Shown: positions 11,423 through 41,411 of the stretch, piece after piece | Layout: the number at the start of each line of letters is the position of its first letter | Numbering within the stretch: the first letter of the stretch is position 1 | Source of the DNA: a virus | Lineage: Duplodnaviria > Caudoviricetes | DNA length: 53,939 bases | IMG/VR virus record: IMGVR_UViG_3300030419_006158 | Span: 1 to 53,939 of that record | Direction: 5' to 3' (one strand) | Notes under the pieces: model-generated | The model's database searches: none | The model's input: only the letters and a program-made list of their open reading frames with translations | What the model was told of the DNA's origin: nothing | Position numbers and translations under genes: made by a program

Positions 11423-11614
11423 ATGGAGCCATTATCTAGAGAGTTTCTCCTCAGCCAAAAAAAATGTTGTGGATCAGGTTGTAAAAATTGTCCATACTTA
11501 CCGCGACATAAACGAAATGCCGATGTGGTGGAATTGGTAGACACGGCAGACTTAAAATCTGCTTCCTGTAGTGGGAGTAACGGTTCGAGTCCGTTCATCG
11601 GTACCATTAAATAA
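11423..11614 (+). CDS. Cys-rich DUF5522-like protein reading through tRNA-Leu
   Basis: FLL...CCGSGCKNCPY motif; TAATG coupling at 11421-11425. Confidence 0.65.
   Translation: MEPLSREFLLSQKKCCGSGCKNCPYLPRHKRNADVVELVDTADLKSASCSGSNGSSPFIGTIK
11519..11606 (+). tRNA. tRNA-Leu(UAA)
   Basis: GCCGATG/CATCGGT acceptor stem, GCAGA-cttaaaa-TCTGC anticodon arm, long variable arm, GGTTCGAGTCC, encoded CCA. Confidence 0.95.
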
Positions 11615-15473: not shown

Positions 15474-16427
15474 ATGAAATATGTAGTCACTGGTGGTGCT
15501 GGTTTTATAGGTAGTACTTTTATAGACGAAGTACTAAAAGAAGATGTTAATCCTACAATAATTTGTATTGATGATTTTTCAACAGGGTTTAGTAGAAATA
15601 TACCCACATCTTTTAATGTAAATGTTATTAATGCTGATATATCTATGTTAGCAGGTGACAATGAAATTACTAATAAGGTAAAAAAAGAAATTGCAGGAGC
15701 GGACTATATGCTGCACTTTGCCGCGAAAGCAAGAGTACAACCATCAATAGATAATCCTATTGAATTTAATGATACGAATGTCAACGGAACTCTTAATTTG
15801 CTAGAGTTATGTAGGGAGGTAGGTGTTAAGCGATTTGTTTTCAGTTCATCGTCTTCTATATATGGAGATACAGAATTGTTCCCTACTCCAGAAACTGCTC
15901 CTTCTTGTCCCTTAAGCCCATACGGGTTACAGAAATTAATAGGAGAACAATATTGTCAGTTATATTCCACTATACACGATTTAGAGACTGTATGCTTAAG
16001 GTATTTTAATGTATATGGTGATAAAATGCCTACAGAAGGAGCGTATTGTTTAGTGATGGGTGTATTTGCTCATCAAAAACTAATTCACAGACCTCTTACT
16101 ATATACGGTGATGGTAAACAACGGAGAGATTTTACTTCCGTAAAAGACGTTATAAAAGCAAATTTATTAGCATGTACAAGTACTAATGTAGGTAAAGGAG
16201 AAGTTATTAATATTGGTAACGGTGATAATAAATCAGTACAAGATATTGCTAATATATTTGGTGGACCGTTTGAGTATAAACCTAAGCGATTAGAACCGTT
16301 TCAAACTTTAGCAGATAATACTAAAGCACGAGAATTATTAGGATGGGAACCTACAGGTAATGTACATGAGTGGGTAACTGAATATGTAAGAGAAATAGAC
16401 AACCGTATGGCTAATATACCTTTATGA
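15474..16427 (+). CDS. NAD-dependent sugar epimerase/dehydratase (GalE-like SDR)
   Basis: TGGAGFIG, SSSS.YG, YGLQK, RYFNVYG, RDF. Confidence 0.92.
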   Translation: MKYVVTGGAGFIGSTFIDEVLKEDVNPTIICIDDFSTGFSRNIPTSFNVNVINADISMLAGDNEITNKVKKEIAGADYMLHFAAKARVQPSIDNPIEFNDTNVNGTLNLLELCREVGVKRFVFSSSSSIYGDTELFPTPETAPSCPLSPYGLQKLIGEQYCQLYSTIHDLETVCLRYFNVYGDKMPTEGAYCLVMGVFAHQKLIHRPLTIYGDGKQRRDFTSVKDVIKANLLACTSTNVGKGEVINIGNGDNKSVQDIANIFGGPFEYKPKRLEPFQTLADNTKARELLGWEPTGNVHEWVTEYVREIDNRMANIPL

Positions 16428-19177: not shown

Positions 19178-19254
19178 GCCAGCTTAGCTCAGTTCGGCAG
19201 AGCAACGGTTTTGTAAACCGTCGGTCCTCGGTTCGAATCCGAGAGCTGGCTCCA
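19178..19254 (+). tRNA. tRNA-Thr(UGU)
   Basis: GCCAGCT/AGCTGGC acceptor stem, ACGGT-ttTGTaa-ACCGT, GGTTCGAATCC, CCA. Confidence 0.95.
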
Positions 19255-20874: not shown

Positions 20875-22665
20875 ATGATTGTATTAGGTATTTCAGCATT
20901 TTATCACGATAGCGCTGCTGCCATTTTAATAGATGGGGATATTGTAGCTGCTGCACAAGAAGAAAGGTTCACTAGAAAGAAACATGATGCTACCTTTCCT
21001 ATTAAAGCGATAAGTTATATTTTATCTGAAGCTAATATTACATTAAAAGATATAGATTATATAGTATTTTATGATGATCCTTCTTTAAAATTTAAAAGAA
21101 TTCTTAAAACACATTTAACAAATATTCCTAAAGGTCTCAGATCTTTTCGAACGGGTATGCCAATATGGGTTAAAGATAAATTCTTTTTAAGGAAAGTAAT
21201 TTCAAAAAAATTAAAAAAGGCGTTTGGTGGAGGTTTTAAAGGTTGTATTTTATTTACTGAACATCATTTTAGTCACGCCGCGAGTGCATTTTATCCTTCC
21301 CCTTTTAAGGATGCTGTTGTTTTAACTATTGATGGTGTAGGTGAATATGCTACAACAACTGTAGCTATTGGGAACGGAAATAAACTTAACATTGTTAAAG
21401 AAATTTGTTTTCCTAATTCATTAGGTTTATTATATTCTGCTTTTACTCATTATACAGGCTTTCGAGTTAATAGTGGTGAGTATAAATTGATGGGGCTAGC
21501 ACCATATGGAACACCTAGGTATACAGATTTAATTTTAGACAATTTAATAGACGTAAAAGAAGATGGATCGTTTCGTTTAGATCAGTCTTATTTTGATTAT
21601 ATGACTGGTCGTACTATGATCAGTAAAAAGTTTTTAACTCTTTTCGGTTACCCAGCAAGGAAACCAGACTCAGATCCTTTAAGTCAATTCCATATGGATA
21701 TCGCTGCGTCTATTCAAGCTGTAACTGAAAAGGTTTTATTGCAGATGACTCGTGCTCTTGCAGATGAATATAAAATTCCAAATTTATGTCTTGCAGGAGG
21801 AGTTGCTCTTAATTGTGTTGCTAATGGAAAAATTCTTAGAGATAAAGCTTTTGAAAATATTTGGATACAACCTGCCGCTGGAGATGCGGGAGGTGCTCTT
21901 GGAGCGGCATTAGGTGTTTGGCATAATAAATTTGCATGTAGTCCTAGAACCCTTGACAGTAATATGATGAAAGGTTCTTACCTTGGTCCTAGCTTTAGCG
22001 ATATTGAAATCGAACAACAGTTATCCGAAGCAGGTGTTATTTTTCAAAAGGTTTCAGATTCTATCCTTATTGAAAAGACTGTAAAGCAATTAATTGATAA
22101 TAAAGCTATAGGGTGGTTCCAAGGACGAATGGAGTTTGGTCCTAGGGCTTTAGGAAACAGATCAATTTTAGGTGATCCTCGATCTGAAGATATGCAAAAG
22201 CTTTTAAATTTAAAAGTAAAATTTCGAGAAAGTTTTCGTCCTTTTGCTCCTTCAGTTTTACGAGAAGATGTAGGTGACTGGTTCGAAATGGATTATGACA
22301 GTCCCTATATGTCAATCGTCACTAACGTACAAAAGAATATTCAACATGAAATGACTCAAGAGGAAAAGGCATTATTTGGAATTGAAAAACTAAATGTTAA
22401 AAGATCAAACATCCCAGCAGTGACACATGTTGATTATTCTGCTCGAGTACAAACTGTCCATTCTGAAACCAATCCATTATATCATGCTTTGATTAGTGAG
22501 TTTAAAAGGATAACAGGTTGCTCATTATTAGTTAATACCTCATTTAATATTCGAGGAGAGCCAATTGTATGTACACCGTTAGACGCATTTAAATGTTTTA
22601 TGGGTACAAATATTGATTTTTTAGTTATTGGTAATTTTATCATAGATAAAAAGCATCAAAAATAG
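20875..22665 (+). CDS. O-carbamoyltransferase (NodU/CmcH family)
   Basis: ISAFYHDSAA, QEERF.R.KH, EHH.SHAAS, DGVGE, GEYKLMGLAPYG, GGVALNC, EFGPRALGNRS, NTSFN. Confidence 0.95.
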   Translation: MIVLGISAFYHDSAAAILIDGDIVAAAQEERFTRKKHDATFPIKAISYILSEANITLKDIDYIVFYDDPSLKFKRILKTHLTNIPKGLRSFRTGMPIWVKDKFFLRKVISKKLKKAFGGGFKGCILFTEHHFSHAASAFYPSPFKDAVVLTIDGVGEYATTTVAIGNGNKLNIVKEICFPNSLGLLYSAFTHYTGFRVNSGEYKLMGLAPYGTPRYTDLILDNLIDVKEDGSFRLDQSYFDYMTGRTMISKKFLTLFGYPARKPDSDPLSQFHMDIAASIQAVTEKVLLQMTRALADEYKIPNLCLAGGVALNCVANGKILRDKAFENIWIQPAAGDAGGALGAALGVWHNKFACSPRTLDSNMMKGSYLGPSFSDIEIEQQLSEAGVIFQKVSDSILIEKTVKQLIDNKAIGWFQGRMEFGPRALGNRSILGDPRSEDMQKLLNLKVKFRESFRPFAPSVLREDVGDWFEMDYDSPYMSIVTNVQKNIQHEMTQEEKALFGIEKLNVKRSNIPAVTHVDYSARVQTVHSETNPLYHALISEFKRITGCSLLVNTSFNIRGEPIVCTPLDAFKCFMGTNIDFLVIGNFIIDKKHQK

Positions 22666-26822: not shown

Positions 26823-27165
26823 ACAAGGTAAAATATGGGGATCTACACGACCTCTTTTTAATAAAAATAATGTTGAGATTCATAGAATTGAAACTAATAA
26901 AGGCGGTTATTGTAGCAAGCATAAACATGAACACAAATATAATTGCTTTTATGTAGAAAAAGGTCTACTAAAAATCACTGTATGGAAAAATGATTATAAT
27001 TTAATGGATACAACTATACTTTCCTCTGGAGAAGCCACTACAGTTCCTCCTGGTGAGTATCATGTATTCGAAGCATTGGAAGATTCTATATGTTTTGAAA
27101 TATACTGGGTTGAAATAAATCAATCAGATATCGTAAGAGAAGATCATGGAGGAATTCGCGAATGA
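26809..27165 (+). CDS. Cupin domain protein
   Basis: GKIWG, CSKHKH..K.N.FYV..G, PGEYH.F. Confidence 0.8.
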   Translation: MNLHKQGKIWGSTRPLFNKNNVEIHRIETNKGGYCSKHKHEHKYNCFYVEKGLLKITVWKNDYNLMDTTILSSGEATTVPPGEYHVFEALEDSICFEIYWVEINQSDIVREDHGGIRE

Positions 27166-28355
27166 GTAATTATAATCAGGCTCAATATCAACAAATTATA
27201 TCTTATATACACAAATTCTCACAGCTATTAACTAAGGCCGATGTAAAGCATTGGCTTGATTTTGGAACATTGTTACATGCCTATAGAGACGGTGGCGTGT
27301 TAAATAACCCTAACCGAGCAGCTGCTGGTAAAGATGTAAACGATACGTATTTAAATGATGATGATTTTGATATTAGTTGTATAGGTACTGATTATGATAA
27401 AGTTATAGAGGTCTGCAAAGAAAATAATATAGAGTATATAGAAATTGCTCCAAGGCAGCTAATACGTTTTACTAGAGAAGGTCTTGCAAGTATTCATAAA
27501 AATGAATGGCCAAATAGACTGTCTGGTGATTATGATAGTTGGATTGATATGTTCTTTTGGGTTGAATCTCCTAATTATGATATTTTAGTAGAAGATCAGA
27601 TTGACATGGCTTCTGGATCTAGGATAGAAAATGCTATATTAACTCTCCCCAAAAGTTCTTTATTCAACTGGACTGTTGATAAACAAAGTCATTGTGACTA
27701 CTATTGGATCACGAAAAAATATTTTATTCAAGAATTAGATTCAATCCACCTATACGGGTTTAAGTTCCCTGCACCTAGGTATGTAGAGAGACATTTAGAA
27801 GCAAGATATGGTACTAAATGGAAGACACCTATGACAAAAGGATTATTTGTAGAACATTTTTATTCTACAGATCCTGCAAAATATTTTAACTTGTTAATGG
27901 AAGATAAAATTTCAGTATTTATTGAAGGTGTCTGGGATTTATTCCATCAAGGCCATGTGGAGTTATTAAAACGAGCGCATTACGCTTATGATAAGGTTAT
28001 TGTAGGTGTTGCGTCTGATGAATTAGCAAAAAGTTATAAACGGTCACCTATTATACCATACGGTGACAGGGTTAAAATGTTAGAAGCGTGTAAATATGTT
28101 GACCAGATTTATCATAATGCTCCATGCATGGATATTACAGAAAGTGTTTTAGATAATTGCGGTGCAGATTATAGTTTACGTAGTGTTCGAGATGCTAATA
28201 ACTGGAGGGAAGAAGTAAGTGACCTTGGTCACGGTGCGTTAGTTGATACGAATAGAGTTCATTTTCTATCTTATACAAAGTATCATTCGACTGACATAAT
28301 TAATAAAATTCTTGATCCCTATTACGGGGATCCTTTAAATTCTACTCAATCATGA
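27162..28355 (+). CDS. LicD-like phosphotransferase fused to TagD-like cytidylyltransferase
   Basis: N-terminal WLDFGTLL.AYRDG...DDDFD...L..RYG..W.TP; C-terminal GVWDLFH.GH, GVASDE, R...L.AC.YVD, HST..I. Confidence 0.8.
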   Translation: MSNYNQAQYQQIISYIHKFSQLLTKADVKHWLDFGTLLHAYRDGGVLNNPNRAAAGKDVNDTYLNDDDFDISCIGTDYDKVIEVCKENNIEYIEIAPRQLIRFTREGLASIHKNEWPNRLSGDYDSWIDMFFWVESPNYDILVEDQIDMASGSRIENAILTLPKSSLFNWTVDKQSHCDYYWITKKYFIQELDSIHLYGFKFPAPRYVERHLEARYGTKWKTPMTKGLFVEHFYSTDPAKYFNLLMEDKISVFIEGVWDLFHQGHVELLKRAHYAYDKVIVGVASDELAKSYKRSPIIPYGDRVKMLEACKYVDQIYHNAPCMDITESVLDNCGADYSLRSVRDANNWREEVSDLGHGALVDTNRVHFLSYTKYHSTDIINKILDPYYGDPLNSTQS

Positions 28356-28508
28356 CTATTACACCCGCATCTGCTATTACAGCACTCATCGTTCTGAGTA
28401 TTCTCATCATCGTTACTGAGTTCTGTCGACGCAGACGTGGCCCCCGTAAATGATGTATTTAAAGAGTTATATCCGAGTTCATTATCCATTAGTTAAATAA
28501 ATATTTAT

Positions 28509-29222: not shown

Positions 29223-29584
29223 TGTACGAATATAAAGCTAAAATTACTAGAGTTGTCGACGGAGATACAGTTGATGCATTAATTGATTGTGGTTTTTCCG
29301 TTTTTAGAAAGGAGAGAATTAGACTATTTGGTATTAATGCTCCAGAATCTCGTACTCGAGATAAGGAAGAAAAAAAGCGAGGTTTAGCTGCAAAAGCTAG
29401 ACTAAAGGAGCTTATAAAAGAAGGTAAGAATCAAGTTGTTGTTCAGACTCAAATAGATAAGAAGGGTAAGTTTGGGCGTTTATTAGGTGAGTTGTTTAAC
29501 CATCAAGTAAACGCCTGTAAAACTTATAATGAAATCTTAGTAGATGAGGGTCATGCTGTGGAGTACTTTGGCGGAAAGAAATAA
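29222..29584 (+). CDS. Thermonuclease (SNase-like)
   Basis: VVDGDT, RIRL.GINAPE, GKFGRLLG, LV.EGHA..Y.GG. Confidence 0.92.
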   Translation: MYEYKAKITRVVDGDTVDALIDCGFSVFRKERIRLFGINAPESRTRDKEEKKRGLAAKARLKELIKEGKNQVVVQTQIDKKGKFGRLLGELFNHQVNACKTYNEILVDEGHAVEYFGGKK

Positions 29585-29592
29585 ATATTTAC

Positions 29593-30737: not shown

Positions 30738-31391
30738 ATGGCAGGAATAGCAGATCAATTCAAAGGACTTCCAATGTCCGACTTAATAAGTCAACCCCTG
30801 TTAGCTGCAGCGAAGGCGCAGGGTCAATTATCAAATGTAACTCAACAGTTTATTAAAGACGTAGGTTTAGAAGGTGACGAGGGCTCCGGATATACCGCGC
30901 GCACCGTAGATTTTAAATTTAAATCTCCAGTAACAGATAAAAAAGGTAATACAACGTTAAAAGACAACGATCTTAATGTACCGTTACTGTCTATTGTAAA
31001 TGTTCCTAATTTATCAGTTAAAAAAGCTACTGTAGACTTTTCGATGGAAGTCAAATCGTCCAGTCAAGATACTACTACCGCGCAAACAGATGCTAATGTA
31101 AGCACAAAAGCGAAGTATAGTGCTTGGTGGTCACCAGTCAGTGTAGAGATGACTGCATCGGTAAGTACTAGTAATAAATCTGAAAGCGTTAGAAAAACAG
31201 ACAATTCAGCTAAGTATGATGTACATGTTGAAGCGCGTGATGATGGACCTCCAGAAGGGTTGATGAAAGTGTTAGATATTCTTAACTCTGCAATTGTTCC
31301 TAAGGGAGGTTCTACTGCACCAACTCCACCACAAGGTGGTAATAATCCACAAGGCGGAGGTGGTGGAGGAGGGAATCCACAGGGCGGTTAA
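30738..31391 (+). CDS. DUF2589 domain protein
   Basis: F.GLPM..LI..PL.AA..AQ, FI..VG, VPLLSIVN.P.L, F.MEVK, DNSAKY.V.V.A...PPEGL.KVLDIL; TAAATA at 30725. Confidence 0.8.
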   Translation: MAGIADQFKGLPMSDLISQPLLAAAKAQGQLSNVTQQFIKDVGLEGDEGSGYTARTVDFKFKSPVTDKKGNTTLKDNDLNVPLLSIVNVPNLSVKKATVDFSMEVKSSSQDTTTAQTDANVSTKAKYSAWWSPVSVEMTASVSTSNKSESVRKTDNSAKYDVHVEARDDGPPEGLMKVLDILNSAIVPKGGSTAPTPPQGGNNPQGGGGGGGNPQGG

Positions 31392-31406: not shown

Positions 31407-31781
31407 TCAACGTTTAATACCCCAGTACTTGTGATCATAGTCTGGGGTATTTTCTTGTATTGCTGCCTCATACCATCTTCTATATTCATCTGGTTTCAGT
31501 TTCTTCATTAATTCAATTCCTGGGGTGATTGTATGATGGATACTGTTTGTGTCAGGGCTTGGTTCCCATATTCTCGCTAAAGCATACAATTGATTTTTTT
31601 CATAATCTTTACAATTAATTAACAAACAAAAGTTATGCAGTAAGGATTTTCTAGGAGGTGGATTAATTCCTCTTTCAATTTTTCTCCAAATACTCCTGTC
31701 AATTTTTAATAGTTTAGATATCTTTTCTGTGTCTCGAAAACGTCGACTTCGAAGTTCTTTTAAATAACTACTAAATTTCAT
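31407..31781 (-). CDS. XRE-like helix-turn-helix protein
   Basis: F..YLKELR...SK.L.I..S.W.KIERG..PPP. Confidence 0.7.
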   Translation of the reverse strand: MKFSSYLKELRSRRFRDTEKISKLLKIDRSIWRKIERGINPPPRKSLLHNFCLLINCKDYEKNQLYALARIWEPSPDTNSIHHTITPGIELMKKLKPDEYRRWYEAAIQENTPDYDHKYWGIKR

Positions 31782-31787
31782 TCCACG

Positions 31788-31799
31788 TATAAATATTTA
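31788..31799. promoter_or_regulatory. Palindromic bidirectional late promoter
   Basis: TATAAATATTTA gives TAAATA on both strands between divergent ATGs at 31781 and 31801. Confidence 0.65.
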
Positions 31800-31800
31800 C

Positions 31801-32283
31801 ATGACTAGACCTCTTAGAAGACGAAGACAATCTCTTATAAGTCAAATTCGACAGAGACTAGATGATATGGAGGATCGTTTAGAGTTGATCGAAGATGACT
31901 TAGGTATAAATAGTTCTATGGCAGACGATAAAATAGTTACAGCCGATGGTCCAGTCGGAGTTGGTAGCACTGCTCCTGCTGTTGGTGTCGGTAGTACAGC
32001 AACCTCTGAGACTGTTGGTGTTGGTGTTGGTAGCACTGCTCCTGATAACGTTGGTGTAGGTAGTACAGCAACCTCCGAGACTGTTGGTGTTGGTGTTGGT
32101 AGCACTGCTCCTGATAACGTTGGTGTAGGTAGTACAGCAACCTCTGAGACTGTTGGTGTAGGTAGTACAGCTCCAAGTGGTACTACACAAACTGATCCAG
32201 ATACAGCTGCAGACGGAGAGCAACCTGCTCCTGCTGTTGGCGTTGGTAGTACAGCTCCTGCACCTGATCCAGATTTCAGTTAA
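31801..32283 (+). CDS. Coiled-coil plus VGVGSTA-repeat protein
   Basis: N-terminal heptads, then about eight VGVGSTA/VGSTA units. Confidence 0.7.
   Translation: MTRPLRRRRQSLISQIRQRLDDMEDRLELIEDDLGINSSMADDKIVTADGPVGVGSTAPAVGVGSTATSETVGVGVGSTAPDNVGVGSTATSETVGVGVGSTAPDNVGVGSTATSETVGVGSTAPSGTTQTDPDTAADGEQPAPAVGVGSTAPAPDPDFS
31981..32175. repeat. 69-bp coding tandem repeat (about 2.7 copies)
   Basis: Units start at 31981, 32050 and 32119 and encode VGVGSTATSETVGVGVGSTAPDN with synonymous differences. Confidence 0.85.
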
Positions 32284-32767: not shown

Positions 32768-33001
32768 TTATGCTAATAAATCAAGTTCATATGCAGTTAT
32801 TGCATCATAAAGAGCATTATATTCTAAAGTTTCATTAATTTGTTGTGCCAGGTATGCGCCAAAAAGTCTTTCTGATGCTGCTCGACGAACCGCTGTACTA
32901 CTCGCTAATTCCGCTGAAGTCTGTTGTCGATCACTCCAAGCTTTAATGCTTTTAGATTGTATATCATTATCCCCTATGTTCCACGGTAAGTTAACATTCA
33001 T
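32768..33001 (-). CDS. Hypothetical protein
   Basis: 77 aa coupled ORF. Confidence 0.55.
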   Translation of the reverse strand: MNVNLPWNIGDNDIQSKSIKAWSDRQQTSAELASSTAVRRAASERLFGAYLAQQINETLEYNALYDAITAYELDLLA

Positions 33002-33261
33002 TTTTTAATTTCTATAGGCTCATGTTGTCTTGTTGTATAAATATGATGGAGTTTATCATACGCTTCGTCATAATTCCATTGTGGGCATTTCAAGGACATT
33101 GTTCTATGTTTTGGATAGTCTTCTTGCCATATCCATGTACCAGTGCATCCGGATAAAAATATTATAATACCGCCATACAGTATAATATGAAAAGCCCTAA
33201 AAATGGTGCTGCAGCTATAATTAAATAGCCTTCCCAGTTTTGTTTCATATCTTCCATCCAT
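32998..33261 (-). CDS. Putative lipoprotein (start uncertain)
   Basis: IIIFLSGC lipobox; overlaps the upstream ORF. Confidence 0.45.
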   Translation of the reverse strand: MDGRYETKLGRLFNYSCSTIFRAFHIILYGGIIIFLSGCTGTWIWQEDYPKHRTMSLKCPQWNYDEAYDKLHHIYTTRQHEPIEIKK

Positions 33262-34634: not shown

Positions 34635-34789
34635 TCTTCTTTTCTTTCTTGGATGGTTAGTTTTTCTTGTTTGTTACCAAACGCGCTATGTCTTGGATTG
34701 CAGCAACATTGGCATCGCGGTTTGTTGTCCCTTATTTTTTCCGCTTTGCCTGTTTTGTAATTTATATGGTTTCTCGTTGTTCTACTCAT
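34613..34789 (-). CDS. Small Cys-containing basic protein
   Basis: MSRT.R...CQCCCNPRH...LTIQERK; start overlaps the cyclase stop. Confidence 0.55.
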   Translation of the reverse strand: MSRTTRNHINYKTGKAEKIRDNKPRCQCCCNPRHSAFGNKQEKLTIQERKEEWPKQVN

Positions 34790-36326
34790 CTGTCTTGAAC
34801 TCCGCTTTTTTAGTACCTCTCCAGTCGGGGAACTCTGTTCGACCGAATCCAGGGCCGTATGCTGTATGTATGTGTACAGTTGTACCATGCTTAACAAACA
34901 CTTGACCCCAGTCTTCAAATTTTAACCCTGGTATATCCATTTCACTTACGTTATTATATACTTGGTTTGAAATTAATATATGATCATTATCTCCAGCATC
35001 CATACACCTTTGCGCCATGTTAATGCCGTGTCCACTGACGTTTGGATTATCATTAATGTCTTTTACTGGTACTACAGGGCCAGTGTATAACCCGTTCCTT
35101 AAACCTATGTTTGCGCTTTTATAGCATTTCTTACCTACATCTACTGCACATTTAAAAGCAGCATGAACACTATTAAAAAACACTAAAGCCATTCCATCAC
35201 CAGTAGGTAAGATTATTAACTTACCTTGTCTTTGTGCTTGTTGATATCCTTCTGTTCCTTTAACAATAGCGATAAGATCATCCATTACTTTCTTTTGCAT
35301 CGCGGTACTCTTTTTGGAGTAACCTACAATATCCATAAAGTATGTATGAGACTCACAAGGACTATCATACGTAATAGAATCACCTTTTAAGTTAAATGGG
35401 TCGCCTCCCCACTTCCATTTTATAACTCTAGATCTCTTCAAGCGCTCTTCTTCTGCTTTAGCTTTATCAGCAGCTTCTTGTATGCGTGCGTTTCTTTCGT
35501 CGTGTTCTTTCTGTAGCGCATCTTCTCTAGCTCGTCTATCAGCCTTCGACTCAGTCATTTTACCCCATAGACTAGTTGGAGCTTTTTTGACATTTTGAAA
35601 TTCCATAGATTTGTATTCTTTTGGTTTATTAGAACCAACTTTAACATGACTCGTAGAGCCCGTAGGTTGTTTTTTATAGTTCCTATTAGGGTTCTTTAAA
35701 CATCCTTTAGATTTTAAATACGTTAATAGCTCTTCATAATTATTATCAGAAGCTATTTCGTACGGATTTAATTGACCGTCGAGACATGCCCCGTTCGGAT
35801 TAGCCTTATATTCAAATAGTAGCTCGCACAGTTCTTTATTGTTTAACTCTACAGCATAATGAATAGCCATCCACCCTCGATTATCTCTTCCATTAACTTT
35901 TATGGTATCATCTTCTAATAATGTTTCAATTTCATCTACATCTTCCATTTGCACGGCTTGTTGTAGGGTCATATCATTACCGTAAAATTGTCCTCCCTTG
36001 TCTTTTAAGTTAGTAAGTATTTTTAACCGATTTGGTCCCTCTGCTACATCCATTGGGTAAACTATAGGATCTTTGCTATGTTCATTTTTTTCTAGAGCTA
36101 AGTTCCAATCGCTTTGAGTTTCATTTTGTGGTGGATTACTTTTTACATTTGGTGATATTCCAGCATCTAGTATTATTTGAACGATTTTAGTCTTACTGCT
36201 ATTAGCTGCATAGTGTAGAGGGCTCCATCCTCTTTCTTTATCTAAGGATAGTATAAGCCTTTTATTTTTTACAGCAGTTTTGATGCCTTTAATGTTACCA
36301 GACCTAGCTAAAGCATGAACATCCAT
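34782..36326 (-). CDS. Ankyrin-repeat / class III nucleotide cyclase fusion
   Basis: Ankyrin repeats (GWSPLHYAA, GWMAIHYAV); cyclase motifs FMDIVGYS, PTGDGMALVF, LR.G..TGPV, G.GINMAQR, ILIS, VKHG; minus-strand TAAATA at 36334-36339. Confidence 0.88.
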   Translation of the reverse strand: MDVHALARSGNIKGIKTAVKNKRLILSLDKERGWSPLHYAANSSKTKIVQIILDAGISPNVKSNPPQNETQSDWNLALEKNEHSKDPIVYPMDVAEGPNRLKILTNLKDKGGQFYGNDMTLQQAVQMEDVDEIETLLEDDTIKVNGRDNRGWMAIHYAVELNNKELCELLFEYKANPNGACLDGQLNPYEIASDNNYEELLTYLKSKGCLKNPNRNYKKQPTGSTSHVKVGSNKPKEYKSMEFQNVKKAPTSLWGKMTESKADRRAREDALQKEHDERNARIQEAADKAKAEEERLKRSRVIKWKWGGDPFNLKGDSITYDSPCESHTYFMDIVGYSKKSTAMQKKVMDDLIAIVKGTEGYQQAQRQGKLIILPTGDGMALVFFNSVHAAFKCAVDVGKKCYKSANIGLRNGLYTGPVVPVKDINDNPNVSGHGINMAQRCMDAGDNDHILISNQVYNNVSEMDIPGLKFEDWGQVFVKHGTTVHIHTAYGPGFGRTEFPDWRGTKKAEFKTDE

Positions 36327-36332
36327 ATAGAA

Positions 36333-37325
36333 TTATTTATTTTTATCTAATTTGTTAATGTATGTGATGACTTGTTTTATTGAATCATGTAATGGTGTAG
36401 TTGCTTCGAACCCAAGTATTTGTTTAGCTTTTGTAACATCAGGTATGCGTTTTTGTATATCGTATGTAGGTGGTTCGTCGCTTATGTAATTAAAAGGCTT
36501 ATCACCATTAATTTCTTTCCATACTAACTGTGCTAATTCTAAAATAGTTGTTGTCTGTGAGGTTGAGATATTAAAATCTTCATTTATTGCAGCTTCATTT
36601 TCAATGGCTAATCTTATACCTCGCACAACATCTTTTACATCTGTAAAACAACGAACTTGGTTACCAGAGCCTAAAATATGTAATGGGTCTTGTCCTTGAA
36701 GAGTTTTATTAATTAAGTCTGGTAAAACAAATTTATTAACTTTCCCTGTCGCGTGATTAATACCAGTACCTATACAATTTGATGGTCGTATAATTGTGTA
36801 TGGTAATTGATATTGCTCATATGCACTTTTAGTAATATATTCTCTTAGGAGTGTTTGAAATCCATAAGTAGAGACTGGTGCTAGAATATTTTTTAAAGAG
36901 GCTTCGGTTGTAGGAAAAGTATCAGCATTTTCAAACACCTCACTCCCAGAAAGTACAATCTGCCGTTTTACTTGATACTCTTTAAATAGCTTAATAGCTA
37001 ATTCAGTTTCAGTAGTTAATATTCGTGCGTTTGCTTGTAGTGCATCATATGAACGTTTATCATAATAACGTGTACCATATACTTCACCAGCAGCAGAAAC
37101 CCAAACATCAATATCTTTAAAACAAGGACCTAGTCTAGGAGTTATTTGACATTTTACAATATTTGTTTCTAAGAATGTAAACTCAGGATGGTTGTCATGT
37201 TTTCTTTCTATTTTTCCATACTTAGAGCAATCATCTAGACCCATTACTGAGTATCCATTACTAAGTAATTCGTCACACAAGTGACTACCTATAAACCCTT
37301 GACATCCAGTTACTACTACTTTCAT
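36333..37325 (-). CDS. NAD-dependent epimerase/dehydratase-like SDR (YxxxK altered)
   Basis: TGCQGFIG, YGFQT, RP.NCIG, G.G.Q.RCFT. Confidence 0.85.
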   Translation of the reverse strand: MKVVVTGCQGFIGSHLCDELLSNGYSVMGLDDCSKYGKIERKHDNHPEFTFLETNIVKCQITPRLGPCFKDIDVWVSAAGEVYGTRYYDKRSYDALQANARILTTETELAIKLFKEYQVKRQIVLSGSEVFENADTFPTTEASLKNILAPVSTYGFQTLLREYITKSAYEQYQLPYTIIRPSNCIGTGINHATGKVNKFVLPDLINKTLQGQDPLHILGSGNQVRCFTDVKDVVRGIRLAIENEAAINEDFNISTSQTTTILELAQLVWKEINGDKPFNYISDEPPTYDIQKRIPDVTKAKQILGFEATTPLHDSIKQVITYINKLDKNK

Positions 37326-37341
37326 TACTATGTAAAATTAT

Positions 37342-37635
37342 TTATGGCGTACTTGCGTGACAATCATAACATCTATCTTGCATTAGTTTATGATCGAGCA
37401 TCAGTTCGTGTCTTATATTCCATCTTTCGATGTCGTGTTGATCAGGTAAACTACCTGGTTCTACGTCATATTCAGCAGCGTAATAATAAATAGTAAGTTG
37501 CCGTCGGTAGTTGTGACACTCTGCCATTTGTGCGGCTTGTTTTGCTTTTGCTGAAGCTGATAGTAACATCCCTGTTAATATTGAGATTATTGTTATAGTT
37601 ACTAAAAGTTCGAGTAAGGTGTAACCTTTTCTCAT
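37342..37635 (-). CDS. Short prepilin-type protein with C-terminal CxxCH
   Basis: [12 protein letters not shown] class III signal peptide; C-terminal CYDCH. Confidence 0.8.
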
Positions 37636-38612
37636 TGCATAGGTTTCCATGTTGGATGGTGACCCCATGTATCATTCCAGTACCATCCCCAGGAATCGTA
37701 CGATTGCCCATCAATATTTCTAATATTCCAAGGTCTAAAATATCTAGATACACCACTATGAACTTTTCGCCAAGGATGATTATTAGGGTTTGGTTCAGTG
37801 GCTCTATCACTTAACCATTTTATATCTCTATTGTTAGGACTAACGAAAAGATCTCTTGTTGTTGTAGGGTTTTGTACTGATTGAGGAATAACTTTAGTAT
37901 CCTCTTCTAACCATCTTCTAAATTCCACATGAGCATCTACGAAAGAAACTACAGAGCCATAATTATGGTAAACACCAGGCCAGTCCATAGAGAATGCGCT
38001 CTCTTTTCCAGTTAAGGTAGGAGGTACTCTAAAGTTACCAGCGTTTATAGATTGTGGAGGCATTTCAATAAAAGTAAAAATAGAAGAAGGGTCTCTTACA
38101 TCATCATATGTATGATAAATTTTATGCTGAGTGTCAGCTTCGAAAGGCCAACCTGACCACCCTCCAACAAAAATATTTACGCTATAAGATCTAGGTCTTT
38201 TTTTTATAATGTTAACCCAATTAGTAGCGTCTTTAGCTTTTTCTTGCCAAACTACCGTTGACTTATCTCCGGGACATCCAAAAATCCCCATACCCGCATA
38301 AGGCTTAAGCGGTGACCAAAACAATGGCCTGTCTGTTTGACCCCAAGCTCCACTGCCACTCATGCTATCTGCAACCCAAGCCCACATACCTGTTGGTTCA
38401 GCTCTCCATGCAGACGCATAAGGAAATCTATCTTCATGGTCACCTGCAAATTCAGCATAAGCTAAATTGAGTTGGCGTTGATTGTTTATGCAGGCAGCTT
38501 GCCATCCTGTTTGTTTAGCTGATGAAAGAGCTGGTAGTAGTAATGCAGCTAGTATAGCAATGATTGCAATTACTACAAGTAGTTCGATTAAACTAAAGCC
38601 TTTCTTGAACAT
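37632..38612 (-). CDS. Prepilin-type / DUF1559 (H-X9-DG) pseudopilin-like protein
   Basis: [59 protein letters not shown]; late promoter near 38620. Confidence 0.92.
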
Positions 38613-38657
38613 ATCTAAATATTTATTCTCAGATTTCTGGAGAAAAAATATATATTT

Positions 38658-38879
38658 TTACTTAGTGAGATAAGTTACTATGATAGAACAAATAACGCCC
38701 ATCACAGCACCTCCAATAGTACCAATCATTGCTATCTTGGAATTTTGAGTAGCTACTTGAAGCTCTATCTTTTTTTGATTGTCTTGTAAGCGACCTATAT
38801 CCCCATCGAGTCTATGTAACTCACTGAGTACTAACCGTCTCCACTCGGCCCAAGACCCATTTTCTTTAGGTTCATTCAT
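38658..38879 (-). CDS. Small coiled-coil plus C-terminal TM protein
   Basis: W.EW..LVL.EL.RL; C-terminal TM helix. Confidence 0.65.
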   Translation of the reverse strand: MNEPKENGSWAEWRRLVLSELHRLDGDIGRLQDNQKKIELQVATQNSKIAMIGTIGGAVMGVICSIIVTYLTK

Positions 38880-39213
38880 GCGATATAAGAGTCACTTTCT
38901 TATGTATAAGTTTACCATCACGCCGTAAGTCTGTTACTTTTACCATGTGTTTCGTGTCGTGTATCGTAATTGTTCTAGATCGTTTATTATTCGTTAAAAC
39001 ATCTATACCAAGAATAGTATTTAGACCCTTATTGTGAATTTCTTCTTTATTCACATCAAATGACCTTTGAAAATAATCGTTACACCATTTGATTCTTCCA
39101 GCCTCTGATACTAACACAATAGAATAATCAGCCTTTGTAACGTAATCTATAAAATCGTTTTCATGCAGCTCTAGCTGATGAGTTAATTTCTCTAACTTCT
39201 TTAAATTAGTCAC
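38872..39213 (-). CDS. Stand-alone PAS-like domain protein
   Basis: IVLV...GRI.WCN..F...F....EEI....L..IL. Confidence 0.6.
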   Translation of the reverse strand: MTNLKKLEKLTHQLELHENDFIDYVTKADYSIVLVSEAGRIKWCNDYFQRSFDVNKEEIHNKGLNTILGIDVLTNNKRSRTITIHDTKHMVKVTDLRRDGKLIHKKVTLISHE

Positions 39214-41378: not shown

Positions 41379-41411
41379 AATTACCGATTATTTATTCCTT
41401 AAAAAAATTAG

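Follow-up and report, generated by a model that had tools for sequence, protein, structure and literature searches.

A predicted class III nucleotidyl cyclase joined to ankyrin repeats in a family of uncultured marine phages

The linear, 53,939-bp viral record IMGVR_UViG_3300030419_006158, which has a G+C content of about 34% and is estimated to be 27% complete, carries an open reading frame (ORF) that appears to join ankyrin repeats to a class III nucleotide cyclase domain. This locus, examined within the entire record (hereafter the window), raises the questions of whether the gene belongs to a phage, whether its product is an active enzyme, and which cyclic nucleotide such an enzyme would release inside an infected cell. 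An earlier sequence-only reading had placed the gene at positions 34782-36326, which is correct and to which the minus strand can be added, and had proposed a cyclase with an unusual product that is made late in infection. We estimate a probability of about 0.6 that the product of this phage-borne ORF is a catalytically competent class III nucleotidyl cyclase that is active as a homodimer and probably makes cyclic AMP (cAMP), a reading that draws on sequence comparison and structure models.

The ORF is predicted to encode two ankyrin blocks, a disordered stretch and a charged helix, followed by the cyclase homology domain. Its segments are as follows, where pLDDT is the predicted local distance difference test score of the model and A3 is an alignment of 56 homologues with identities down to 32% overall:

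34782-36326 (-): complete ankyrin-linker-cyclase ORF (P0001), with an ATG start and 514 amino acids plus a stop codon; full-length homologues occur in 41 viral loci
36135-36326 (-): ankyrin block 1, residues 1-64; Pfam Ank at 33-63 and Ank_3 at 33-60; modelled helix pairs, pLDDT 92-97
35982-36134 (-): inter-ankyrin insert, residues 65-115, with a small beta hairpin at 69-80; seen in the model and as conserved motifs (PMDVA.GP.R.KI) in A3
35682-35981 (-): ankyrin block 2, residues 116-215; Pfam Ank_2 at 121-212, Ank_4 at 122-170 and Ank_5 at 136-192; pLDDT 82-96
35571-35681 (-): low-complexity linker, residues 216-252, probably disordered; pLDDT below 50 over 217-246
35433-35570 (-): long charged helix, residues 253-298, rich in Glu, Lys and Arg; modelled helices 253-257 and 261-298, pLDDT 55-68
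35358-35432 (-): conserved pre-cyclase segment (RVIKWKWG.DPF...), residues 299-323; mean pairwise identity 0.59 in A3, low-confidence model
34809-35357 (-): class III cyclase homology domain, residues 324-506; sequence matches and a domain model

Five ankyrin Pfam models score over their cut-offs, namely Ank_2 (E = 2.9e-20), Ank (E = 5.7e-12), Ank_3, Ank_4 and Ank_5. The full-length model has a pLDDT of 79 and shows the paired helices of an ankyrin repeat fold with a pLDDT above 90 for most of residues 1-215. The charged helix at 261-298 extends over 38 residues. The insert between the ankyrin blocks is missing in some homologues (P0038 and P0102-P0121).

Residues 324-506 can be firmly identified as a class III cyclase domain from sequence matches and modelled structure. 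A phmmer search of the Protein Data Bank (PDB) with the C-terminal part of the protein retrieved the cyclase domain of Rv1900c (1ybt) with E = 2.2e-5 over 130 residues. When a profile built from 18 relatives was used for the same purpose, all 23 distinct sequences that matched at E <= 1e-3 were cyclases, with 3mr7 at the top (E = 5.4e-12). BLASTP aligned the domain without gaps to the metagenomic protein P0149 (45% identity, E = 7e-50), which belongs to a set of representatives that all (60 of 60) match the Pfam Guanylate_cyc model PF00211. An AlphaFold2 model of the domain reached a pLDDT of 89.7 and a predicted template modelling (TM) score of 0.86. With this model, Foldseek gave E = 6.5e-11 to 3et6 and a TM score of 0.81 to 1ybt, and every match listed was a cyclase. 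Similarly, VIA-align superimposed the model on the adenylyl cyclase Ma1120 (4wp9) with Z = 18.6 and a root-mean-square deviation of 2.5 Å over 160 residues, gave Z = 18.3 with Rv1264 and Z = 18.2 with Rv1900c, and returned adenylyl or guanylyl cyclases without exception among its best 50 entries. The architecture of ankyrin repeats, charged helix and class III cyclase, which had been proposed from the sequence by eye, is upheld by the Pfam ankyrin models, the match to 1ybt and the structure model.

The residues expected to carry out catalysis are all in place. Their positions are listed here together with the two base-selecting positions, and with counts from a subfamily alignment of 145 domains that was assembled from the matches listed in a wider search (see below) and includes two members of the phage family:

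35331-35333 (-): Asp332, first metal-binding Asp (FMDIVG); aligned with the Asp of FTDIVG in 1ybt; 145/145, invariant in A3
35208-35210 (-): Leu373 (LPTGDG), where the adenine-specifying Lys would be, four residues ahead of the second metal-binding Asp; 124/145, invariant in A3
35196-35198 (-): Asp377, second metal-binding Asp (TGDG); aligned with the Asp of 1ybt and 3mr7; 145/145, invariant in A3
35040-35042 (-): Asn429 (NVSG), where the adenine-specifying Asp would be, seven residues ahead of the transition-state Asn; aligned with the first Asp of D-i-f-G-d-a-v-N in 3mr7; 139/145, invariant in A3
35007-35021 (-): Asn436 and Arg440 (GINMAQR), transition-state pair; aligned with N.A.R of 3mr7; Asn 142/145, Arg 145/145, invariant in A3
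34890-34892 (-): Lys479 (VKHG), probable triphosphate-binding Lys; aligned with the Lys of VK in 3mr7; 145/145

Six residues (D332, D377, R410, N436, R440 and K479) do not vary among the 56 homologues of A3 and are present in 142-145 of the 145 subfamily domains, so that the claim of an intact catalytic set, made for D332, D377, N436 and R440, holds throughout these homologues. We take the position of Lys479 to be that of the triphosphate-binding Lys of cyclases. All of these residues are located on one chain, as in the homodimeric bacterial cyclases, for which an excerpt of PMC4174876 describes a full catalytic set within one chain.

Conservation of the protein follows its domain structure. 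The mean pairwise identity is 0.71 in the cyclase domain and 0.52-0.55 in the ankyrin blocks, and falls to 0.31 in the linker and helix (residues 216-300), the least conserved part. Compared with a 97%-identical homologue (locus L002), the ratio of nonsynonymous to synonymous substitution rates (dN/dS) stands at 0.031 for the whole gene and at 0.013 for the cyclase domain, values that point to strong purifying selection; more distant pairs are saturated. These numbers bear on a different view of the protein, in which the cyclase domain is a non-catalytic module for nucleotide binding or dimerisation and the protein acts via its ankyrins, for example by sequestering a host protein. The idea draws on the Pfam score of the domain, which lies under its cut-off, on the non-canonical residues of the base pocket, and on ankyrin-only phage proteins with host-directed roles, examples of which are given in an excerpt of bioRxiv 10.1101/608950. 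Pseudo-enzymes usually lose catalytic residues. Here, those residues are invariant down to 32% overall identity, and no other part of the protein is as well conserved as the domain that contains them, which makes a non-catalytic role for it improbable.

A separate feature of the comparison with L002 is that synonymous divergence is unevenly spread along the gene, with a value of about 1.06 in the cyclase half (34809-35357) and 0.11 in the ankyrin half (35682-36326). This split hints at recombination inside the gene.

The identity of the product is less easily predicted. The mycobacterial cyclase Rv1625c provides a reference for the pocket, and its transition-state pair is presumably Asn372/Arg376. 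The metal-binding Asp residues of this enzyme are D256 and D300, and its substrate-specifying residues are K296 and D365, as given in PMC4174876. In this register, the Lys lies four residues before the second Asp and the Asp seven residues before the Asn, which places Leu373 in the position of the Lys and Asn429 in that of the Asp. The cyclase 3mr7, which is of the Lys/Asp type, has K-T-T-G-D and D-x-x-G-x-x-x-N-x-A-x-R at the matching places. Thus, Leu and Asn do occupy the base-selecting positions as first noticed, and of the two canonical purine-specifying pairs, Lys/Asp in adenylyl cyclases and Glu/Cys in guanylyl cyclases, neither is present in the phage protein. Because Leu373 and Asn429 stand at the purine-specifying positions, the product cannot be read from the sequence. 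We favour cAMP because the solved structures nearest to the domain belong to adenylyl cyclases, one of which, Rv1900c, likewise lacks the Lys. Specifically, Rv1900c has an Asn at that position in the phmmer alignment and is described as an adenylyl cyclase (PDB titles; PMC4174876).

The Leu/Asn pair had been seen as a peculiarity of the phage protein. Comparison with cellular cyclases indicates otherwise. When the domain was searched against 1.84 billion cluster representatives, 3807 proteins matched at E <= 1e-3, including 343 at E <= 1e-30. The best non-phage matches share 40-46% identity over about 175 gapless residues and occur in proteins of 240-1300 residues. Among the 145 aligned domains, Leu is found at the Lys position in 124, followed by Pro in 138 and Thr in 137, and Asn is found at the Asp position in 139, whereas both metal-binding Asp residues, Arg410 and Arg440, and Lys479 and His480 are present in all 145. 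In other words, the hallmark of this subfamily is Leu-Pro-Thr before the second metal-binding Asp together with an Asn that replaces the adenylyl cyclase Asp. All 60 subfamily proteins that were scanned match PF00211 (best E = 4e-30). Of 61 alignment members, 20 are fused to a protein kinase domain and about 23 to TPR repeats, and the names assigned by JGI to a few members include 'serine/threonine protein kinase', 'TPR repeat protein' and 'class 3 adenylate cyclase'. Judged by these alignments, the Leu/Asn pocket is the consensus of a huge cellular cyclase subfamily and has been inherited by the phage proteins. Since the pair is common to the cellular subfamily, it is uninformative about phage biology in particular, and taken alone it gives no ground for expecting an unusual product. 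A literature search for the motif strings of the subfamily returned no paper that mentions them, and we know of no characterised member.

These findings also bear on the possibility that the enzyme is active and mainly makes a nucleotide other than cAMP, such as cGMP, a cyclic pyrimidine or another product, and thereby interferes with nucleotide-based immunity or signalling of the host. Both canonical residue pairs are absent and Leu373 and Asn429 are invariant, which would accord with such a product. Moreover, excerpts of two studies describe Pycsar and Pucsar cyclases in which the choice among UTP, CTP and GTP depends on small changes at a few residues of the pocket (PMC11224242; bioRxiv 10.64898/2026.08.12.744502), and the first of these excerpts notes that Asn recognises uracil in other nucleotide-binding proteins. 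However, the same Leu/Asn pair is usual in thousands of cellular proteins fused to kinase domains or TPR repeats, which do not resemble defence proteins, and the nearest solved structures are purine cyclases. The resemblance to Pycsar itself is weak. The PADLOC model for PycC matched with E = 0.023 and 12.2 bits over 56 residues, which falls short of a PycC call, and gave no match at E <= 1 with the full-length protein. The bulky residues that fill the PycC pocket could not be placed. Neither structure search listed a PycC chain in its 50 entries, a result that does not exclude a distant likeness. Beside the cyclase gene, no Pycsar effector (PycTM or PycTIR, or a TIR, transmembrane or cyclic nucleotide monophosphate (cNMP)-binding protein) was found; rather, the neighbours encode an epimerase, pilin-like proteins and unannotated proteins. 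Whole-record domain searches of five phage records, two of which are complete, likewise yielded no effector, sponge or nuclease partner: the cNMP-binding domain PF00027 and the metallo-beta-lactamase (MBL)-type hydrolase PF12706 were found in none of the five. The Pycsar analogy of the sequence-only reading therefore carries little weight, and a main product other than cAMP seems unlikely to us, yet far from negligible.

Whether the gene belongs to phages can be judged from its relatives. Of 2005 candidates from a word-indexed protein search, 1757 matched at E <= 1e-3. Ankyrin Pfam domains are present in 118 of the 120 matches listed, which derive from marine surveys; the identity in the cyclase part ranges from 98% down to 44%, and JGI labels some of these homologues 'ankyrin repeat protein/class 3 adenylate cyclase'. 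In IMG/VR, the gene is found on 41 loci. The 97%-identical homologue L002 belongs to a record of 200,819 bp that has direct repeats at its termini, is rated complete and encodes a T4-type major capsid protein Gp23 (PF07068, E = 5.2e-90). This capsid protein has just 31-38% identity to those of deposited phages, with cyanomyoviruses being the nearest. In other lineages, genes for PhoH, a sigma-70-region-2-like protein, an ERCC4 nuclease, a T4-type large terminase and a weakly portal-like protein are located within a few kilobases of the cyclase gene. Exactly one cyclase-domain gene is present in each of the five phage records searched in full.

A mis-called bacterial contig was considered as the source of the gene and was rejected because the genome with the near-identical copy has a T4 capsid gene and terminal repeats and because the relatives have a terminase neighbourhood. 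By its genomic surroundings, the ankyrin-cyclase gene is phage-borne, and its phage origin and conservation among related phages, both of which had been anticipated, are documented by the 41 viral loci.

Likewise, no near-identical host homologue exists among the genomes scanned. A search for close relatives in one genome each of 185,579 species gave a single locus (L045; NZWA01000041.1, 'MAG: Flavobacteriales bacterium NAT55'), a 77-kb contig of a metagenome-assembled genome (MAG) labelled 'Flavobacteriales bacterium'. Here the gene order is cyclase, helix-turn-helix (HTH) protein, PhoH, sigma-like protein and nuclease, and because this is a phage gene order, the locus is most likely a phage contig mis-binned in a bacterial MAG. 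The binning could be a hint of a Flavobacteriales host, or it could simply reflect similar composition. The contig of another homologue, labelled 'Crocinitomicaceae', doubles as an IMG/VR record. Thus, the only cellular labels encountered come from two Flavobacteriales MAG bins with phage contigs in them, and the Verrucomicrobia host that had been considered is not shown.

The family has not been seen in deposited phages. Among 50,697 such genomes, tblastn found no match with the whole protein at E 1e-5 or with the domain at E 1, and megablast found no match to window positions 20000-44000. A plasmid search gave three distant matches with about 30% identity. In a quick maximum-likelihood tree built from every second row of each set (28 of 56 phage domains and 72 of 143 others), all phage domains lie on one side of a single long branch with a support value (SH-aLRT) of 100. 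As far as the aligned sequences tell, the phage cyclases are one clade of the cellular subfamily.

The timing of expression was assessed from motifs upstream of the gene. The sequence-only reading had proposed that the cyclase has its own late promoter 7 nucleotides (nt) from the ATG. A TATAAATA-like element of the T4 late type is indeed present there in the form AATAAATA, so the motif stands, and the word 'late' rests on motifs. The octamer AATAAATA is not enriched in the window (18 copies compared with 13.4 +/- 3.6 expected), and plain counts of neither AATAAATA nor TATAAATA exceed chance. The core ATAAATA is differently distributed. It has only 40 copies on both strands, yet at 12 of 65 ORF starts a copy begins 12-20 nt ahead of the start codon (0.2 expected; binomial P about 3e-18); the ORF starts come from a list that we compiled without overlaps and that consists mostly of ORFs with 100 amino acids or more. 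The relevant sites are these:

36334-36341 (-): promoter-like motif AATAAATA, 7 nt before the cyclase ATG, overlapping the last two codons and the stop codon of the epimerase gene
1487-1493, 2213-2219, 28497-28503, 29581-29587 and 31789-31795 (+): examples of ATAAATA
36334-36340, 38620-38626 and 41389-41395 (-): examples of ATAAATA

Many copies of ATAAATA are extended into the palindrome ATAAATATTTAT, and a Shine-Dalgarno-like tetramer occurs at just 10 of the 65 ORF starts. This pattern suggests either near-leaderless transcripts made from a promoter of the T4 late type or an operator site. Scans for sigma-70 promoters and terminators around the cyclase gene gave results at or below chance.

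Among the relatives, ATAAATA is located upstream of the cyclase gene in just 4 of 38. Instead, GTGTAA is found within 35 nt before the cyclase start in 32 of 41 and begins 14-17 nt before the ATG in 31 of 33 (loci of the L003-L042 series). Of 156 copies of GTGTAAT in related loci, 93 are no more than 30 nt upstream of an ORF start, and GTGTAA(T) is likewise located ahead of the portal-like gene (12 of 13 loci) and of a gene for a 148-amino-acid protein (16 of 28). We recognise no known motif in GTGTAAT. From its placement, the cyclase gene has its own conserved upstream signal in most of these phages, which it shares with a probable structural gene. The T4 late-type ATAAATA in the window and the GTGTAAT in common with the putative portal gene point to late expression, which fits these observations and is not proven by them.

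A protein made at that stage might be packed in the virion and injected with the DNA, causing a burst of cyclic nucleotide at the start of the next infection. T4-type phages inject late-made enzymes, and the signals that precede both the cyclase and portal-like genes of relatives, as well as the T4 late-type motif of this phage, would be consistent with such a route. We nevertheless regard it as very improbable, as no capsid-targeting sequence was recognised in the protein and the portal assignment is weak (PHROG E = 4.7e-4, with no Pfam match).

The cyclase gene is located in an island of minus-strand genes, and the following features of this island and of the rest of the window were identified:

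36333-37325 (-): sugar epimerase dependent on nicotinamide adenine dinucleotide (NAD), 6 nt upstream of the cyclase gene
37342-37668 and 37632-38612 (-): two proteins with a prepilin N-terminal methylation motif (Pfam N_methyl, E = 1e-7 and 4e-7), adjoining the epimerase and cyclase genes
38872-39213 (-): small PAS-like protein of 113 amino acids (PAS_GdpP, E = 4e-4, under the cut-off), with ATAAATA upstream and found in just two related loci
31407-31781 (-): HTH protein of 124 amino acids, the steadiest neighbour of the cyclase (Pfam HTH_31, E = 6.7e-5, under the cut-off)
32998-33261 (-): ORF of 87 amino acids with a lipoprotein-like signal (LSGCTG); its cluster (cluster 11) occurs 93-1887 nt downstream of the cyclase in 20 of 42 loci
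15474-16427, 20875-22665 and 27162-28355 (+) and 36333-37325 (-): sugar or glycan genes, comprising two nucleotide-sugar epimerases, a Nol-like carbamoyltransferase and a heptose kinase/adenylyltransferase-like protein

In 31 loci the sequence extends 3.4 kb or more past the cyclase gene, and 25 of these have an HTH gene encoding 112-124 amino acids 0.2-3 kb downstream of it; from this arrangement we infer a possible functional link between the two. Neither this protein nor the lipoprotein-like ORF has a recognisable nucleotide-binding domain, and the latter has no match in Pfam or PHROG. The proteins with prepilin motifs could possibly be mimics of pilus or secretion-system components, and the sugar and glycan genes suggest that the phage modifies surface polysaccharide. 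The remaining genes of the island have annotations without a function. The edges of the island lack flanking inverted repeats of the mobile-cassette type, and the folding of a 279-nt stretch downstream is barely better than that of shuffled sequences (z = -1.78).

Several other observations were made nearby. Adjoining the HTH gene and divergent to it is an ORF of 160 amino acids (31801-32283, +) that encodes a repetitive protein rich in Gly, Val, Ser and Thr; its repeats at 31943-32255 comprise nine imperfect units of 27-39 nt and three copies of a 69-nt unit. A DUF2589 protein (30738-31391, +; Pfam E = 5e-39) is encoded beside the island and is kept in just two related loci. Genes for tRNA-Leu(taa) and tRNA-Thr(tgt) are located at 11519-11606 and 19178-19254 (+), and an Rfam scan of the window found these two tRNAs and nothing else. 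Among the sequencing runs that share sequence words with this DNA, none of those listed was an RNA run; one DNA run contains 0.97 of the words and may be the source sample, and the others contain small shares.

Several points count against the proposal of a catalytically competent, cAMP-forming phage enzyme with its own late signal. The whole protein scores 17.2 bits with PF00211 (residues 402-481), and the C-terminal 214 amino acids alone score 19.9 bits, both under the cut-off of 21.9, and only two of five phage homologues score over it. The Leu that replaces the Lys leaves no obvious hydrogen-bond partner for the adenine ring, and because the pocket carries no positive sign for adenine, cAMP is a default guess rather than a deduction. 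Our literature search found no product for any subfamily member. With respect to timing, AATAAATA overlaps the end of the epimerase gene and is in part made up of its last codons and stop codon, and with only 6 nt between the two genes, co-transcription with the epimerase is equally possible. In addition, the capsid gene of the related complete genome is preceded by a slightly different motif, TATAAATG, located further upstream and followed by a Shine-Dalgarno-like leader; together with the possible co-transcription, this leaves late timing not established. Finally, the neighbours in the island, with the exception of the small HTH gene, are not conserved among related loci, and thus the context gives little functional guidance.

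If the protein is a catalytically competent cyclase as we favour, it would presumably work as bacterial single-domain cyclases generally do, as a head-to-tail homodimer whose interface contains two active sites. Two Mg or Mn ions would be held by Asp332 and Asp377, Asn436 and Arg440 would stabilise the transition state, Lys479 would hold the triphosphate, and Leu373 and Asn429 would line the base pocket. The enzyme would convert a nucleoside triphosphate to the 3',5'-cyclic nucleoside monophosphate inside the infected cell, most probably yielding cAMP and perhaps with relaxed purine specificity. The ankyrin domain might bind a protein, of either the host or the phage, by which the enzyme is positioned or switched. 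Because the phage genomes contain no recognisable cyclic-nucleotide receptor, the product would act on receptors of the host, where it could shift physiology in favour of the phage.

A broader and more speculative proposal is that the Leu/Asn pocket, both in the phage clade and in its cellular relatives, makes a cyclic nucleotide other than cAMP or cGMP, or an unselective mixture, and that large marine phages produce the enzyme late or inject it so as to override or pre-empt host signalling or immunity. We consider this unlikely. If true, the pocket would define a new messenger-producing branch of class III cyclases, together with a phage strategy of making second messengers rather than destroying them.

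On the preferred reading of a cAMP-forming enzyme, large uncultured marine phages probably make a signalling nucleotide inside their hosts. Known phage counter-measures to nucleotide signalling degrade or soak up host messengers, and a conserved, strongly constrained phage gene apparently able to make a cyclic nucleotide would represent the reverse approach. Marine metagenomes contain the family in abundance, whereas the 50,697 deposited phage genomes searched lack it, and it has thus escaped study. Assigning a product to it would be a first for a very large cellular cyclase subfamily, and the ankyrin domain provides a handle for finding the host target.

Among known systems, the mycobacterial cyclases Ma1120, Rv1900c, Rv1264 and Rv1625c resemble the phage domain in fold, in both metal-binding Asp residues, in the Arg and in the register of the pocket residues. 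Rv1900c in particular shares the absence of the Lys and a longer loop before the pocket Asn or Asp. The two groups differ in that identity is only about 20%, the phage protein has Leu/Asn instead of Lys/Asp, and the mycobacterial enzymes carry their own N-terminal regulatory domains whereas the phage-carried protein has ankyrins and a charged helix. Far closer is the cellular subfamily with the signature LPTGDG ... N-V-A-G-x-G-I-N-x-A-Q-R, which has the same Leu/Asn pair and the same invariant C393, H449 and K479-H480. The phage clade departs from it by its long branch, by ankyrins in place of kinase or TPR domains, and by changes at several positions otherwise conserved in the subfamily, such as Tyr414 for His and Pro466 for Trp.

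The Pycsar cyclase PycC and the cGMP-forming PucC share a distantly related class III-type fold and the pair of metal-binding Asp residues. Pycsar, however, is a host defence system, whereas the ankyrin-cyclase gene sits in a phage. Another parallel comes from uncultivated marine pelagiphages, in which an excerpt of PMC9599517 describes adenylate cyclase genes within curli (type VIII secretion system, T8SS) clusters and proposes a cAMP-driven change of host behaviour. Both cases involve phage-encoded cyclases of uncultured marine phages. The pelagiphage genes are set with CsgG/CsgF, a histidine kinase and FecR, while CsgG was found in none of the five phage records searched here; in the same excerpt, an ankyrin fusion is not mentioned and the class of the cyclase is not stated. 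Apart from this study, our literature search on phage ankyrin-cyclases, or on class III cyclases in phage counter-defence, returned nothing pertinent.

Structural matches to other viral cyclases were found in BFVD, including two 'uncultured Caudovirales phage' proteins (A0A6J5RWB7, E = 3.3e-7; A0A6J5KRX6, E = 2.8e-4) from two uncultured phages and proteins of the giant viruses Harvfovirus, Faunusvirus and Pandoravirus. These differ from the phage protein by their transmembrane sensor, response regulator and kinase architectures and by identities of 10-17%, and among the matches listed no description refers to ankyrins. The ESM Atlas also contains a bacterial cluster that joins ankyrins to a cyclase domain (score 0.95), which we regard as a lead only. 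Set against these systems, what is new here is a large, coherent and phage-restricted clade of ankyrin-cyclases, derived from a cellular subfamily to which no product has been assigned.

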